Assembly: GCA_964016885.1 (NCBI GenBank)
Contig: OZ024740.1
Span: 100,812,001 to 100,876,000, forward strand
Direction: 5' to 3'
DNA: 64,000 nucleotides
Source: Eledone cirrhosa
Lineage: Eukaryota
The position numbers and the translations under genes were made by a program. How positions within the stretch are numbered: position 1 is the first letter of the stretch; the number at the start of each line of letters is the position of its first letter. This document shows, in pieces, positions 15,561 to 57,132 of the stretch. The notes under the pieces are model-generated. The model saw nothing but the letters and a program-made list of their open reading frames with translations. It searched no databases and had not been told where the DNA came from.

Positions 15561-16213
15561 GTTTTTAGTCATGCAACTAACCATTGTCGACATAACATGG
15601 TTAGTTGCATGACCAAAATCCTTTAGTATTCTTTTTATCTTTCTTAAGGCAGGCTGTAGTAATAGCAACAACAGGGAAAATTCCAACAGGATCATTTCTG
15701 CTTAATGAACATATACTTCATAATGAACATATACTAGGTCAGTTCAAATTCAAAGGCAGCCGAGAGGTTAACTTTGCCTTTCATCGTTATGGGGTCGATA
15801 AAATAAAGCACCAGTAATGTACAAAAGTAGAAACAATTATTTCAGGTAGTGTATGTAGCATTACATTAGCAAATGTGTCTTTCATTTTTGAAAACTGTTG
15901 AGGATGATTCTTAACATATTTGGCTGCTATTTCTAGGAGCTTGAGTGACTGCTTGAAATTGCTTTTAAGACAATTGAGTAACCATGTAGAGACACATATA
16001 TGATAGTAAAATGACCGTGTGAGATTTCCCTTAAGATATTTGAGTGACTACATAGAAGTGTATTTAATAATCGAGAGAGCAAGTATGATCCTGCTTAAGA
16101 GAGCTGAGTAACAACATAGAATCTCACATATGTCCCAATAAATGAACATTATGCAAATTAGTTACACAGTGACGATGATGATGATGACATAAACACACAC
16201 ATGTATATATACA

Positions 16214-25797: not shown

Positions 25798-25874
25798 GTA
25801 TATACATATATATATATATATGTATATATATGTGTATATATATGTATATATATGTATATATATATGTATATATA

Positions 25875-26245
25875 TAATATTATAATGAAATGACAGGAGG
25901 CTGGACTTGTGTACATCCTTCACTGGTTTATTATACTATGATCATTTCAATGACCGGGTTCCGTATGAATCCGGTGATATCATCAGGTATTCGAAATATA
26001 ATAAATGAATGTAATAGATCAAATCCAAGGGGCTGAAAAATCAAAGACCGGAGGACGACCGCCATCCACCATCTTCCACCTTTGCCGGTCGCCCTGAAGA
26101 GAGGTGGCTAAAGCTTATGGTGTGCTACTACCGGTCAAATAGAGGAAAACAGAAAGGGAGAGGAAGATAAGCAGCGTTAATATCATGCCACAAGAAAAAG
26201 GACAGAAAGAAGGGGGAAGAGAAGGAAGAAAAGGAAGAAGAAGAA
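25875..26245 (-). mobile_element. Solo arm of family C terminal repeat with hammerhead at 25933-25990
   Basis: Diverged copy of 26283-26650. Confidence 0.75.
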
Positions 26246-26282
26246 CAGTCAGTATGTATATATATATATATATATATATAAT

Positions 26283-30644
<4,362 letters not shown>

Positions 30645-30671: not shown

Positions 30672-31394
30672 ATATAAGTATGTATACGTACTTACACATA
30701 TGTATATAGACGTACAGTAGTATGTATATATATATATACGTACATGCACACATATATATATGTACGCATGGATTTACCGAACATTTATTATAATGCTCGG
30801 TGTGTTTGTAAACAAACATCCCGAATTAAGCCGTACAGTGTCTAGCAACCATCGTTGCTCTTTTGTTCAACACTGACAAAGGAACGCTGTACTAGTTTCA
30901 AGCATATTAGCTATCGTCAGCAACGTATACCTTCCTCCCAGATGATTGAACGTCTGAAAGTATATACTTTCCTTATGCATATTAACGGCTGAGCAGCCTA
31001 ATTTGCATATCGAGTGAGTTAATCGGCCGGGCGCACCGAAAACGATAAACGGAAAAAAATGAAACGAAATTTTATTTCTCACTCTTAGTACGGCTGTTAC
31101 TTAAATATAAGTATGTATACGTACATATATATATGTATACAGACGTACAGTAGTATGAATATATATATACATACATGCACACATATATATATATATGTAC
31201 GTATGGATTCACCGAACATTTATTATAATGCTCGGTGTGTTTGTAAACAAACATCCCGAATTAAGTCGTACAGTCTATAGCAACCATCGTTGCTCTTTTG
31301 TTCAGCACGGACAAAGGAACGCTGTACTAGTTTCAAGCTTATTAGCTATCGTCAGCAACGTATACCTTCCTGCCAGATGATTGAACGTCTGAAA

Positions 31395-31397
<3 letters not shown>
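30672..31397 (-). mobile_element. Retrozyme-like tandem, 435-nt unit x ~1.7
   Basis: Direct repeat with period 435; one hammerhead per unit; no ORF. Confidence 0.75.
30885..30925 (-). ncRNA. Minimal type I hammerhead; second copy 31320-31360(-)
   Basis: Minus strand: cgttg-CTGACGA-t-agc..gct-t-GAAA-ctag-TA-cagcg. Confidence 0.82.
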
Positions 31398-31471
<74 letters not shown>

Positions 31472-31474
<3 letters not shown>

Positions 31475-33106
31475 TAAATCATGTCTTTAGAATCATCAGA
31501 TAATAAAATATATACTATTTCTTCTTCTAATTAGCATAATTAACAATATAAAAAATCAATTAGAACAAGCTATAAGAATAAATGCCCTTATGGGGAAATC
31601 TCCGACAAATAACCGAACGAAGCCTCTTCGCGGCGGCCTCAATCGCGTATTTATCCAACATTTCGACAGCATGTAGAAACTGACTAAATATACCATCAAC
31701 CATACACAATTAGGTGTAAAATTAAACTTAGAAGAAATGCGCACATACCGTAATTATATCTCTACCATGGTTTCTTCCTTATTTTTAGACATCCAAATAA
31801 TAGGAATGTCCTGAGTTAGGATTCATCAGGAGACAAACTCAAAATCAGACATCTAGTTTTTCAATCCTATCCCGCCAAAGATAGATTCAAAAATGGCTGA
31901 GAATCGCTATGTGGCTGTGGTCAAGCCAGAAAGAAAGAATGTGATTGGTTGCTTACGTCGGGTAGGCTTGCTGCTAGAAAGCGCAGCCAAATATCGCCAA
32001 ATTTAATCTCAACCTATTGGGAGATTATTAAATATAAAGGTTAACATATACATAAAGTTATAGATATATACATGTTGCAACTGGTCACTTTTAAGCTCTA
32101 TGAAGAATTAATAAATTAAAAAATCAGAGCAGTATATCATAAATCATGTCTTTAGAATCATCAGATAAATACTCGATTGAGGCCGCCGCGAAGGGGCTAC
32201 GTTCGGTTATTTGTCGGAGATTTCCCCATAAGAGCATTTATTCTTATAGCTTGTTCTAATTGATTTTTTATATGGTTAATTATGCTAATTAGAAGAATAA
32301 ATAGTATATATTTTATTATCTGATGATTCTAAAGACATGATTTATGATATATTGCTCTGATTTTTTAATTTATTAATTCTTCATAGAGCTTAAAAGTGAC
32401 CAGTTGCAGCATGTATATATCTATAACTTTATGTATATGTTAACCTTTATATTTAATAATCTCCCAATAGGTTGAGATTAAATTTGGCGATATTTGGCTG
32501 CGCTTTCTAGCAGCAAGCCTACCCGCCGTAAGCAACCAATCACATTCTTTCTTTCTGGCTTGACCACAGCCACATAGCGATTATTAGCCATTTTTGAATC
32601 TATTTTTGGCGGGATCAGATTGAAAAACTAGATGTCTGATTTTGAGTTTGTCTCCTGATGAATCCTAACTCAGGACATTCCTATTATTTGGATGTCTAAA
32701 AATAAGGAAGAAACCATGGTAGAGATATAATTACGGTATGTGCGCATTTCTTCTAAGTTTAATTTTACACCTAATTGTGTATAGTTGATGGTATATTTAG
32801 TCAGTTTCTACATGCTGTCGAAATGTTGGATAAATACTCGATTGAGGCCGCCGCGAAGAGCCTATGTTCGGTTATTTGTCGGAGATTTCCCCATAAGAGC
32901 ATTTATTCTTATAGCTTGTTCTAAGTGATTTTTTATATGGTTAATTATGCTAATTAGAAGAAGAAATAGTATATATTTTATTATCTGATGATTCTAAAGA
33001 CATGATTTATGATATATTGCTCTGATTTTATTTATTAATTCTTCATAGAGCTTAAAAGCGACCAGTTGCAACATGTATATATCTATAACTTTATGTATAT
33101 GTTAAC

Positions 33107-33112
<6 letters not shown>
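31472..33112. mobile_element. Retrozyme-like element, 665-nt unit, two greater-than-unit arrays joined head-to-head
   Basis: Period 665 in both arms (31472/32137; 32164/32829); junction microhomology GATAA at about 32164. Confidence 0.8.
32649..32727 (+). ncRNA. Type I hammerhead with long stem II; second copy 31757-31835(-)
   Basis: tgtctc-CTGATGA-a-tcct..gacattc..ggatgtc..agga-a-GAAA-ccatgg-TA-gagata. Confidence 0.82.
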
Positions 33113-33180
<68 letters not shown>

Positions 33181-33185
<5 letters not shown>

Positions 33186-34219
33186 GTATAATAAACAATA
33201 CAATATTATTACCTCATTACCAGAGGTTTCCCGAATAAGACGAATACAAGAACGTCCTCATTCGTTCGTGGGTCAAGGCAATTTAAAACATAGTGAAATA
33301 TTTAAAATCTCCTCAAGAAAGGCAAAAGTTTAACGGGCAAAAAAATATATGAATAAAATAATGCAAGAGATATATAAAAGATAAAATAAGGAAATATAGT
33401 TATGGTATGTGTATAAATGTGTGTATATTCATTCACAAATGTACATATGTGTGTATGTATAAATGCATGTGTATAGTGAAAAAATGTGTGCGTAAGTACA
33501 TATATGAGGGAAAGCATATCAATGTATGTTTGACCATAAATACCTATATAATATATGTTGAAAAAGAAATTGTAAGATAATAGAGTTAACGTACATCCCG
33601 ACTCAGGTACTAAGGATTGAAATATATACACATACAAGTATGAAAGCACCCGTATAAATGTGACTTTTTAGTCCAGCCAGCGACTTGAAAACTCTGGTAC
33701 AAAGACTACACTTGTGACCATTATTGACACATAGTGCATCATATTGACCATGTGATGACAAGTGCAGAGAGATCTCCAAATATAAAGCAATGCCTGTGCT
33801 GTGAAGCTTTTATAGTGAGCAAAGGCACTGCACAAAGCCAGTCCCACTCTCTTAACCAAGATGATATTTACCAAAAAGAAGAACAAGTCAACATCATTGG
33901 ATACCATCAGGGTTGCAGGTGTTATATCAGAGTTTTCCTTCTCCTAGAATTCTGCCTTGACAAAGGCTAAGGGGTCATCTCTCCCGGTGATTTTGGATGG
34001 CTATTGAGTCTTAAGAGCTCCCTTGCCCTTTGACAGGTTTTGTTTTTAGTCCTGCAGGATGTCCAAAGTCACCCTCCTCACCAAGAAACCTGGGTGGGGT
34101 TGCCAGTTTAGTCGCCAACGACCCGACCATGAGACAGGTTGTACTGGGATACATGTTACCAGTAGCACCAACTGGTGACCTGACATAATATATATATATA
34201 CACATATACATACACACAT

Positions 34220-34288
<69 letters not shown>

Positions 34289-35556
34289 CATATATACACA
34301 CACACACACACACATATATATAAGTATGTAAAAAACATAGATATAAATACACACATATACACACACATGCATTCGTATACATATACAAACACGCATACAC
34401 ACACTTGCACGCTCACACGCATAGATACAATATAAAAACCAGCCGTATGAATAAATGAGTACAAATTATACGCAAGTAAACATACATAAAAGCGGCTGAG
34501 AAACAACAGAATATATCTGGAGTTGAAAACGCAAGTGACATGTGATATCAGGTAGTGAAAGAAAATGGGGAAGTAAAATATGTAAAATTGTGAAGATATA
34601 AAGTAAGTGAATCAAAAATAGGGGGGGGGGGGGGCTGGTGGATGTGAAGTAAAAATAAAGTTAAAAATAAAAATAAAAGTAAATCAGAAAGAGAAGTCTG
34701 TAAAGAGGGTAATTTAAGGAAAGTGAAGAACAAGAGTTTATGGAGGATAAGTATCTGAAAGTGAGTTAAGTTTATATGAGCTGGAAAGCAAGTGTGATTT
34801 CATGTGTGGGCAACTGGTGAAAATTTCTGTTTTTGCATTTAGGCAGGTTTTTTGTGATTTAAGGTTCTGTAAAATCCAATATTTTTCACTTATGCAGAGT
34901 GGGCATCTTCTTGTTCCTCTTGCATATTCTTTAGATTGGTTCACAATTGACCAATCTAATTTATATTGGATACTTTGGTCTTTCAAATCACATATTCTGC
35001 TAGCCAGAGCTGTTGTAAATCTTTTTTCAGAATGTCGGAAAGATCCGATATGTGAGTAATAACGCGTTTTGAATTTGTCTTGTGTCATACCCACATATTG
35101 TTCGCTGGTGGCTGGTAGGTTATTGCTGGTGATTGTCACTTTAGCTGCATATACAATGGCTTTGGTGTTACATTTACCTTGTAATGGGCATTCACATTTA
35201 ACTTGATATGCTTGCCATCATATATGTACTAACGCACACATTTTTTCACTATACACATTTGTACATTTGTACATTTGTACATTTGAACATTTGTACATAT
35301 GTACATTTGTGAGTGAATATTTACATACCCTAACTATATTTCCTTATTTCATTTTTATATATCTCTTAAATTACTTTTATTTATATATTTATTTGCCCGT
35401 TAAACTGTTGCCTTTCTTGAGGAGATTTTTCAAATATTTCACTATGTTCTAAATTGCCTTGTCCGACGAACGAATGAGGACGTTTCTTGTATTCGTCTTA
35501 TTCGGGAAATCTCTGGTAATTAGGTAATTATATTGTATTGTTTATTATACATTATA
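33181..35556 (-). mobile_element. 5'-truncated PLE (Hydra-like) with inverted terminal arms (33181-~33520 and ~35205-35556)
   Basis: GIY-YIG ORF 34738-35195 (CPLQGKC..IVYAAKV..YVGMT..CPLCISEK); degenerate hammerheads at 35456-35525(+) and about 33210-33280(-). Confidence 0.85.
33650..34185 (-). mobile_element. RTE LINE 5' end (5' UTR plus decayed APE endonuclease start) inserted in the PLE 3' UTR
   Basis: 5' UTR motif ggcgactaaactggcaacccc and broken FFW..G(T)GF-type endonuclease codons. Confidence 0.55.
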
Positions 35557-35771: not shown

Positions 35772-36084
35772 ATACTTTGGGAGGGTCATGTTGCCAATAA
35801 AAAAGACACGCACCAGTTGCTTTCACTTCAATTTATTATAATAAATTTATAAATTTAGGAATTTATAAATTTCCGGTTGGTTTGTTGGTTCCACAACCAG
35901 ATGATTGTTCATATATTGTGAAAGTTCTTTCGTCACACATTCTGTGACCTGTTCAGTGACTGGGGATTCTTTTCTTTGTTTTTGTGCCTCTCCTTTGTTC
36001 TGTCCTACGCCATCTTGTTTTTGTGTGTGTTGTGTTAACACAACACACACAAAAACAAGATGGCGTAGGACAGAACAAGGACCA

Positions 36085-36739
36085 GGACCTTAGACACCCT
36101 AAAGTAAATCAACCAAAACTAAAAGCTCTTCCATACATCTCCACACACAACCCCCTCAACAATGAGGCCTTTGACACCATCCTCCAGAACATCCCTGTAT
36201 TGAAAAAGGACCATAGAATGAACCAAATTCTACGAACACACGATATCATAAAGAGCAAAAGACAATCCAAGTCAATGAAAAACATCTTAACACATGCCAA
36301 AGTACTGCCAACCACAACAACGAAACCCACAGTAAAAAAATGCGATAGACCCAACTGTGGCATTTGCATCAACCTAATAGAGGGTTCGGAATTCTATTTC
36401 AAAGATGGACAACGTTTTATAGTAAAACACAATTTCACATGTGCATCGGAAAATCTAATATATGTATTAACTTGTTCAGGTTGTCGAGAACAATACATAG
36501 GCCAGACCAAAAACAGCCTCCGCCAACGCATGACTGTCCATAGATCCCAAATTAAAATACGGGAATACAGGAAAATACCACTGAGTGAACACATTGATAC
36601 CTGTGCCGCCCAAAATCATCCCAACTTCAGAATCTTTCCCCTCTACAAATTTAAAGATAATGCCACCCACACCCAGCGCATCAGCAAGGAATCTTACTTC
36701 ATTAACAAATACGGACCCCGTCTAAACACTTCTCCCTAA
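36085..36739 (+). pseudogene. 5'-truncated PLE ORF (Neptune-like linker plus GIY-YIG endonuclease)
   Basis: LPYISTHNP..CDRPNCGIC..FTCASENLIYVLTCSGCREQYIGQT..LRQRMTVH..ESYFI..LN. Confidence 0.9.
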
Positions 36740-40312: not shown

Positions 40313-41750
<1,438 letters not shown>

Positions 41751-41964: not shown

Positions 41965-43461
<1,497 letters not shown>

Positions 43462-44690: not shown

Positions 44691-45640
44691 CTACCCCCCC
44701 GGGTCATTATGGGGTTTGAGGGCGAGGTAAGTCCTACGCAATCTATGTTTACATGCAGTAACCAGTTCATCTTTCTTGTTTAGGAGTTGGTCCGTCGAAA
44801 ACAGCATTTGTAAAGTTTCCTCCGAGCATAAATTGCACGGACGGCGTCCTCCCGTGTAAGAATTGGCTCTGGACAGTAATCTCCAAGTGAGATCATAGGT
44901 GATGTTGTTGTCCTTGAGGTCCCATATGTGGCCCGAAAGTGTAGTGGCGTGACGCCGGGCCGGGTTACGGAAGGTATGTCTATGTTGGTATAGCCGGGTC
45001 TTGAAGTCACATGCGGTAAGTCCTATATAGGCTTTGTTGGAGGTATCCGTCCTCACGTTGCACTGGTAGATCACATTACGGTCTCTGCATCTATTGTCGA
45101 GTGGGCAAATAGATCTATCCGGGCAGTTACACCTCCTGGTCGGTTCTCCACTGCTATTTAGGTTATTTCTGCCATCGGGGTTGAGTTTTTTGTTGTTAGA
45201 GGAGACGATGTTTTGTGCGAAGTTTGGTGTAGTGCTGTAAGAGAGTTTGATGGTATTTTTGTTAATTATGTTGTGGTAGCGGTGTTGTAATGGGAAGTGT
45301 TTTTCAATGAGCCTAAAGAATAGTTTCCCGATGGGAGTTGTCACCTCTGCGTTGTGGGGAGGATTGAACCATGTTACATTGCGTGAGCGGCGGTGTCTCC
45401 TGCTGGTTCCGCTAATGGGAGCTGGACAGTAGGATATTTCCTCCCGGAAACCACTCCGCTTGAGGGCCTGGTTGTAATAAGGCGCATGTTCATCGAATAT
45501 CCGCTCATTAGCTGACAAACGGGATATGCGGAGGGAGATGTTTTTGACCAGGTTGTTTGTGATGTTCCTAGGATGGTTTGATCGGCGGTGGATGTAGTGC
45601 AGATTGTCATTAGGTTTCCTGTATGGGTAGTACAGGTCGT
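44691..45640 (-). pseudogene. 5'-truncated PLE ORF (Hydra-like thumb plus GIY-YIG), with ~1.2-kb 3' UTR to 43458
   Basis: [58 protein letters not shown]. Confidence 0.9.
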
Positions 45641-45663
45641 TTTATATATATATATATACACAC

Positions 45664-55400: not shown

Positions 55401-55455
55401 AGAGCTTCCTGATGATTTCTCATGAATGAAACAGTTCTAGTCCTGTAGAAGCTTT
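55401..55455 (+). ncRNA. Type I hammerhead, family H, in mini fold-back 55340-55468
   Basis: agagcttc-CTGATGA-t-ttc..gaa-t-GAAA-cag..ctg-TA-gaagcttt. Confidence 0.82.
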
Positions 55456-57079: not shown

Positions 57080-57132
57080 GAGATTCCTGATGATTTCTAA
57101 AGAATGAAACAGTTCTAGTCCTGTAGAATCTC
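57080..57132 (+). ncRNA. Type I hammerhead, family H, in mini fold-back 57019-57215
   Basis: gagattc-CTGATGA-t-ttct..agaa-t-GAAA-cag..ctg-TA-gaatctc; stem I shows a compensatory change relative to 55401. Confidence 0.85.

Follow-up and report, generated by a model that had tools for sequence, protein, structure and literature searches.

Two arms of a 665-nt unit lie head-to-head between two (TA)n runs at positions 31,467-33,117 of the window, the 64,000-nt stretch of Eledone cirrhosa DNA analyzed here, in a 3.0-Gb genome rich in TA microsatellite. In our view this stretch probably represents a single copy of a non-coding hammerhead repeat of 665 nt, dispersed in the genome and of the non-LTR retrozyme kind. 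A Hydra-clade Penelope-like element (PLE) likely inserted it into (TA)n, with a circular or multimeric RNA as the probable template. The features of the locus are listed below; window 32316-32980 serves as the ruler for the unit and is numbered u1-u665.

31396-31472, no strand: (TA)n target microsatellite, left flank.
31467-32168, minus strand: left arm, 702 nt, 1.05 units; 3′ end at about 31468, fixed site E1 (u36-37); 5′ end at the junction.
31756-31835, minus strand: left-arm type I hammerhead motif; CUGAUGA starts at 31829, predicted cut after 31763.
32007-32024, minus strand: left-arm bulged hairpin 3′ of the putative start site E2.
32095-32130, minus strand: left-arm bulged hairpin 3′ of the putative start site E1.
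32164-32168, no strand: 5-nt GATAA overlap joining both 5′-truncated arms.
32164-33117, plus strand: right arm, about 950 nt, 1.43 units; 5′ end at u514; 3′ end at about 33112, fixed site E2 (u137-140).
32316-32980, plus strand: full 665-nt unit (ruler u1-u665), 33% G+C, without an ORF.
32354-32389, plus strand: bulged hairpin 3′ of E1 (4-bp stem, 2-nt 3′ bulge, upper stem); candidate RT signal.
32460-32477, plus strand: bulged hairpin 3′ of E2; putative function as for E1.
32649-32728, plus strand: type I hammerhead motif with 6-bp stem I, CUGAUGA at 32655, 47-nt stem II region, GAAAC and palindromic helix III; predicted cut after 32721.
32981-33112, plus strand: terminal partial unit, whose last 100 nt or so are the "tail" from E1 (33017) to E2; carries a 3-nt deletion.
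33110-33183, no strand: (TA)n target microsatellite, right flank.

On the ruler the left arm, which is minus in the hammerhead sense, runs from u1 through the full unit to u37, and the right arm from u514 through the full unit to about u140. The two are 97.7% identical, with a direct repeat spacing of 665, and their 16 differences over 646 columns show that they are not a collapsed duplicate. Several elements of the original prediction were borne out by these measurements, namely arms that each exceed one unit, the GATAA microhomology at the inversion, (TA)n on both sides and the absence of an ORF, the longest stop-free frame in 32164-33117 being 49 codons on either strand. The RT plus GIY-YIG ORF of an autonomous PLE is absent from the unit, and the unit's G+C content lies below the 45-50% retrozyme criterion. 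A proposed likeness to a host repeat did not hold up: it comes down to a single 21/24 match at 15916-15939 whose flanks show no continuation. Capture of a host repeat is accordingly unsupported, this being a short match noticed post hoc, with two further weak look-alikes among the sampled loci and no extension. Immediately to the right, in the same (TA)n run, 33184-33338 (minus strand) derives from the 5′ part of a different PLE family and carries a degenerate hammerhead; a second copy lies at 35395-35552.

An 18-nt hammerhead pattern has 342 exact matches in the genome and its reversed control has none; the family so defined is a dispersed non-coding hammerhead repeat, and the window stretch is one copy of it. 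The best copies sampled diverge by a mean of 2.3% from the commonest letter at each column. A sister subfamily, B, is colinear with the window's subfamily (A), about 645 nt long, 78% identical and has a canonical G10.1-C11.1 pair; subfamily D (689 nt, about 80% identical) is also colinear. A hammerhead-like relic at 32320-32345 (u5-u30), just before E1, resembles the motif core at 57087 and is not kept in subfamily B. Arrays contain from 7 to about 40 units, with 10 at locus L049 and one on contig C1 spanning about 28 kb, and at least two consecutive hammerhead-bearing units occur at L014, L037, L048, L049 and in the C1 array. We observed an irregular higher-order spacing in the C1 array (L116, L117), which looks like a satellite born from a retroelement, and switches of subfamily within or between arms (L048:1980-2600, L088, L112), which suggest template switching among related RNAs.

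To describe the ends of the family, arms were mapped at 120 distinct places. Similarity searches supplied 55 of these, a query with u37 as its last position gave 25 once five duplicates had been dropped, and the first 100 listed pattern matches yielded 40. Among 186 uncut arms, 107 end at E1 (u32-38), 54 at E2 (u136-143) and 25 elsewhere, so that 161/186 end at one of the two sites, and a TA run follows 152 of 162 E1 or E2 ends; target duplications are unreadable within (TA)n. In the pattern-chosen sample alone, 55/67 arms end at E1 or E2 and 23/67 exceed 680 nt. In contrast to these fixed 3′ ends, the 5′ ends are scattered along the unit. The two sites are about 100 nt apart, 296 and about 397 nt past the ribozyme cut, and they are used in pairs: of 57 inverted pairs, 39 combine E1 with E2, one is E1+E1, none is E2+E2 and 17 have an odd end. 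At 38 of the 57 junctions the arms overlap by a few bases. Intact young PLEs of the same genome obey the same two-end pairing (H1 18/18, N1 13/13 and H2 6/6; 37/37), with end spacings of 83 nt in H1, 41 nt in N1 and about 70 nt in H2.

These data alter the reading of the arms that was first proposed. Because 3′ ends are fixed at two sites, copies are not freely permuted; free permutation is rejected, since the two sites are of PLE type and only the 5′ ends vary. The differing phases at which the two arms start and stop are real for the inner 5′ ends, while the outer 3′ ends lie at sites fixed throughout the family. Similarly, greater-than-unit permuted copies had been taken as the footprint of reverse transcription on a circle or multimer: such a template would explain the excess length, but the permutation is gone. 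The suggested genome-wide look for permuted tandem copies yielded dispersed copies and arrays, again with ends at E1 and E2. As for the possibility that copies are always attached to a PLE ORF with fixed linear ends, the 3′ ends are fixed, the 5′ ends are scattered and no copy fused to its own ORF was found in the family sample. Nor are inverted arms in (TA)n a special sign, since the same layout is the ordinary PLE footprint. The family combines the marks of PLE mobilization: two fixed 3′ ends, variable 5′ truncation, inverted arms and microsatellite targeting. Parts of PMC8557442 describe the PLE tail as an extra 30-40 bp at one end, and parts of PMC11167929 report that two internal RT start sites make the tail of a lizard PLE in vitro. 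By analogy, we read the distance between E1 and E2 (about 100 nt in the 665-nt family, 120 nt in subfamily D) as the PLE tail, arising from two reverse-transcription start sites. The near-exceptionless pairing of both start sites in inverted PLE insertions constrains any model of PLE integration.

A bulged hairpin lies 2 nt after E1 and 7 nt after E2. It has a 4-bp stem ending in U-A and C-G pairs, a 2-nt 3′ bulge and an upper stem that opens with a pyrimidine-purine pair. The same hairpin is found 5 and 3 nt after the ends of H1 and 5 nt after the first end of H2; in the 530-nt hammerhead family it follows an end by 3 nt. The second end of H2 fails the strict pattern. Its stems covary (GCUC/GAGC, ACUC/GAGU, GUUC/GAAC, UCUC/GAGA), and the pattern occurs in shuffled sequence at about 0.0003 per base. 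Since this pattern was written post hoc from several examples, all recurrent TA-flanked ends in 1.2 Mb were then tested. The hairpin was found after an end of H3 (7/10 read-throughs), which had not been used in the definition, and after ends of two unnamed families (4/6 and 4/5), against a background rate of 1.3%. In the 665-nt family, H1, H2 (first end) and H3 taken together, it begins 1-7 nt past the end. In the same test it was not found after the ends of Neptune-type N1 (0/21, 0/1) or of the 435-nt family (0/2, 0/3). Isolated hairpins fold modestly (z 0.2 to -2.8). Between subfamilies A and B, conservation is highest (0.86-0.94 versus 0.78) in the stretch u596-u70, which covers E1 along with the greater part of its hairpin.

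The distribution of this hairpin bears on which PLE serves as partner. The proteins of H1 and H2 carry RW[RK], DKT and CxCx5C, which parts of PMC8557442 give as Hydra-clade marks. N1 has DKG and Cx2-5CxxC, from which we read it as Neptune-type. Pfam detected GIY-YIG or RVT_1 only in Neptune-type proteins and nothing in H1 or H2. Intact Hydra-type frames of 784 and 714 aa are present in the genome (L240:3256-5607 and L264:6355-8496), as is an intact Neptune-type frame of 784 aa (L242:2363-4714). Comparison of the 665-nt unit with the H1, H2 and N1 autonomous units gave no match beyond TA repeats, and tblastn of three PLE proteins against the A, B and D units returned nothing below E 3. Family arms are joined directly to Hydra-type pieces at three places (L147 to H1, L055 to H4, L004 to H3), H4 being called Hydra-type from its likeness to H1 and H2 plus its hairpin; among the mapped places none is joined directly to N1. 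Given no homology to the three autonomous units compared, the assignment rests on structure, ends and the three chimeras, and on these we think it likely that a Hydra-clade PLE is the partner of the 665-nt family. That the hairpin acts as a start signal for the partner RT is, in our judgment, the better guess about its function. Were this true, Hydra PLEs would have their first defined template signal, and the tail would correspond to the distance between two binding modules; a portable hairpin directing RT start in AT-rich DNA would also interest builders of RNA-templated insertion tools.

Several observations on the autonomous elements stand apart from this assignment. In H1 (L240:3150-3270), the most active-looking Hydra family, the repeat unit contains no hammerhead descriptor match but a hammerhead-like stretch with a non-canonical core. 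A Neptune-type element with a repeat unit of 4734 nt has a second open frame, of 455 aa, upstream of the RT frame (L242:5799-7163). Pieces of very young autonomous PLEs lie in the window at 44691-45641 (minus), 40313-41623 (minus) and 35960-36739 (plus), and many of the intact autonomous copies elsewhere in the genome are 100% protein-identical, some in tandem arrays.

Each 665-nt unit has one descriptor match to a type I hammerhead, with CUGAUGA at 32655 (plus) and 31829 (minus), and the motif is present on one strand of the unit only. In the plus arm the predicted cut follows GUA, after 32721. Helix III is the palindrome ACCAUGGU, stem I has 6 bp and the stem II region spans 47 nt. At positions 10.1/11.1 an A faces an A, and 11.1 is an A in 78 of 90 sampled units and a U in the other 12. 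The core columns are nearly invariant (90-91 sampled units), and stem II covaries between subfamilies (AUCCU/AGGAA, AUCCU/CGGAU, GUCCG/CGGAC; duplicate loci kept in). An Rfam scan gave no hammerhead model among the matches listed, which were simple-repeat and palindrome noise. Thus the claim of one intact hammerhead per unit stands as to number, while "intact" is weakened by the A-A apposition, the long stem II, the palindromic helix III and the Rfam outcome. The mismatch at 10.1-11.1 together with the palindromic helix III implies dimer-dependent cutting, and we predict that the unit's hammerhead would cut as a dimer. Hammerheads with a palindromic helix III work as dimers according to parts of PMC4209133 and PMC7229834; for dimers of Xenopus retrozymes, a portion of 10.64898/2026.07.22.740005 reports eight of nine without cleavage.

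A possible trace of cleavage in vivo was sought at the 5′ ends. A TA run joined at u410 has 45 genome matches, and 21 of the 30 examined are family 5′ ends located 2-3 nt past the predicted cut. Control joins gave 3/9 matches at u479 and 13/21 at u612 (eight of them subfamily D read-throughs), these controls being imperfectly matched to the cut site; the u479 pattern is kept in only 6 of the 21 cut-site 5′ ends. Family 5′ ends also cluster at other TA-rich points, and u400-415 holds 3/180 in a wider sample. The excess of 5′ ends just after the predicted cut therefore hints at cleavage in vivo, a suggestive result given poorly matched controls.

We also assessed whether one template was read more than once. 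In short insertions, recurrent alleles are common to units within one arm in 143/179 comparisons and across arms in 72/99, compared with 8526/70754 between places; the corresponding values for subfamily D are 64/80, 47/60 and 1240/12277. Changes private to a place are present in all units of the insertion in 17 cases versus 171 in a single unit for subfamily A, and in 18 versus 76 for D. Around the predicted cut (columns 395-420) no gap or insertion was seen in the first 55 places, a sample chosen for similarity. Array units share 851/990 alleles, and because arrays are fairly uniform too, linear multimers could also give such sharing. Two insertions (L041, L048) have arms of differing haplotype or subfamily, i.e. 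from different templates. The sharing of haplotypes within one insertion is consistent with repeated reading of a ligated monomer, and also with uniform multimers. The suggested folding of the circular monomer had a mixed outcome: the structure exceeds shuffled sequences in stability (z -2.9 for A and -1.7 for B, 25 shuffles each), yet is branched, with 61% of bases paired.

Among the alternatives to our preferred reading, PLE-driven insertion in which tandem arrays supply the template as a linear multimeric transcript, uncut or cut in part, with no circle and a weak or idle hammerhead, is unlikely though a serious contender. Arrays of the needed kind are present, most subfamily A units carry the A10.1-A11.1 mismatch, and one insertion (L300) reads past one ribozyme and stops at the next. 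Moreover, parts of PMC11167929 report that PLE insertion in vitro did not need ribozyme cutting and that uncut RNA was the main substrate. Against this, internal starts shorten each daughter, so length would have to be regenerated somehow; place-private changes occur in all units of short insertions; and subfamilies with about 78-80% identity preserve both the core and the helix covariation. That the copies are 5′-truncated pLTR pieces of a further autonomous PLE is improbable. Xenopus retrozymes do match pLTRs in the part of 10.64898/2026.07.22.740005 that treats them, and the genome holds more autonomous families than the three compared, but throughout the 120 places units abut without a spacer wherever an arm has more than one, nearby pieces of PLE ORF vary in the family they belong to, the side they lie on and how far away they are, and the tblastn comparison described above speaks against it as well.

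A viroid-like RNA replicating from RNA to RNA and reverse-transcribed only occasionally would agree with the stability of the circular fold and with the coexistence of many haplotypes. We regard it as very improbable, since the ribozyme motif is on one strand only, the fold is branched, and cycles from DNA to RNA to DNA explain all features of a family with hundreds of DNA copies. Least credible of all is a satellite-like repeat spread or inverted at the DNA level, or an assembly artefact. Long arrays do show signs of later local amplification (mosaic units in L049); nevertheless, the two set positions of the 3′ ends, the scatter of the 5′ ends, the pairing of E1 with E2 and the targeting of TA runs are marks of retroposition and, with the differences between the arms speaking against an artefact, largely refute it.

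Retroposition of the hammerhead repeat by a Hydra-clade PLE could proceed as follows. From the transcript of a source locus with at least two units, paired hammerheads would excise a monomer for a host ligase to close into a circle, a step that we hold to be somewhat favored. The PLE protein would bind two bulged hairpins and nick both (TA)n strands; one cDNA would start just 5′ of each hairpin, at E1 and at E2; each would continue across the ribozyme junction over a varying distance, in many cases more than one unit; and the two would be joined head-to-head at a short microhomology. In its fullest form, which we put forward tentatively and would not call probable, ribozyme RNA circles of 640-690 nt capture the Hydra-clade RT through their two hairpin copies, and two subunits start there and roll round the same circle to produce twin arms longer than a unit. 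The window copy has no consecutive hammerhead units, its two motifs sitting in opposite arms; with one hammerhead per arm it is unable to release a monomer by two cuts and is likely a dead-end product.

Other hammerhead families occur in the window. The 530-nt family (42584-43388, minus) has two TA-flanked ends 116 nt apart with a bulged hairpin after each, and one chimera with the 665-nt family was seen (L122). The 435-nt family (30725-31401, minus) adjoins the locus on its left and has ends without the hairpin. Because it lacks this feature common to the 665-nt family and Hydra PLEs, it probably uses another partner, which may be of a different PLE clade. A short-helix hammerhead family at 55409 and 57087 lies in inverted insertions, where one end is followed by a bulged hairpin containing one G-U pair. 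A 401-nt two-copy repeat at 25851-26645, with an inverted copy at 28339-28648, has no hammerhead by descriptor. The original prediction grouped the 665-, 435- and 530-nt families as viroid-like RNAs dependent on PLE machinery. PLE-type ends and the likeness of the 530-nt family agree with that dependence, the missing hairpin sets the 435-nt family apart, and "viroid-like" is an analogy only.

By its DNA-level features the 665-nt family can be classed as a variant of the non-LTR retrozymes: it has a type I hammerhead, consecutive hammerhead units, no coding capacity, low G+C and a unit size in the published range. Neither an undescribed class nor a size beyond that of known retrozymes, as first suggested, survives comparison with the parts examined of PMC7229834 and 10.64898/2026.07.22.740005. 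These describe low-GC, non-coding tandem units with one type I hammerhead, present as monomers, dimers and arrays in genomes that also hold PLEs; 665 nt exceeds the 170-400 nt circles tested in 2020 (PMC7229834) and falls within the published units of 51-972 bp (10.64898/2026.07.22.740005). The unit differs in its 47-nt stem II region and in having no pLTR match in the three autonomous units compared; those parts of the two sources do not describe two fixed starts, arms paired in inverted orientation or a candidate signal for the partner. Short palindromic helices III are shared with the dimer hammerheads of PLEs and amphibians in the portions consulted of PMC4209133 and PMC7229834. Helix II is much longer in the predicted motif of the 665-nt unit, and axolotl HHR_Amex2 also has a mismatch at the base of helix II, although U-U there and A-A here.

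Relevant sections of PMC8557442 and PMC11167929 share with the family 5′ truncation, an inverted arm, a tail at one end, two internal starts and AT-rich targets; the tail is longer here than the 30-40 bp of PMC8557442 and the unit has no ORF, and the lizard element (PMC11167929) starts in an AC-rich stem-loop whereas the 665-nt unit has the bulged hairpin instead. Hydra-clade PLEs, as far as they are treated in those parts of PMC8557442, resemble the family in (TA)n targeting and canonical hammerheads, and in this genome the tails of H1 and H2 are long and their ends are followed by the same bulged hairpin; unlike the unit, Hydra-clade PLEs code for RT and endonuclease, and they have no primary sequence match with it. 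Non-autonomous Chlamys PLEs such as MRC1 (same parts of PMC8557442) are, like the unit, ORF-less and multicopy head-to-tail through PLE machinery, but their 3′ ends are similar to that of the partner and hammerheads are missing from most of them; the unit differs on both counts. In the literature covered by title or opening text, with supplements, subscription papers and Repbase outside this scope, the 665-nt family, the E1+E2 pairing and the hairpin are undescribed. Copying from circle templates by PLEs, and hence the mover of animal retrozymes, was proposed earlier in parts of PMC7229834 and 10.64898/2026.07.22.740005, and to this the family adds testable specifics: start sites at nucleotide level, a named clade as partner, of which the genome holds young intact copies, and a small covarying candidate RNA signal. 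Judged from sequence, then, what appears to be new are the start sites, the candidate partner clade and the candidate signal, in a class of element that was already known.
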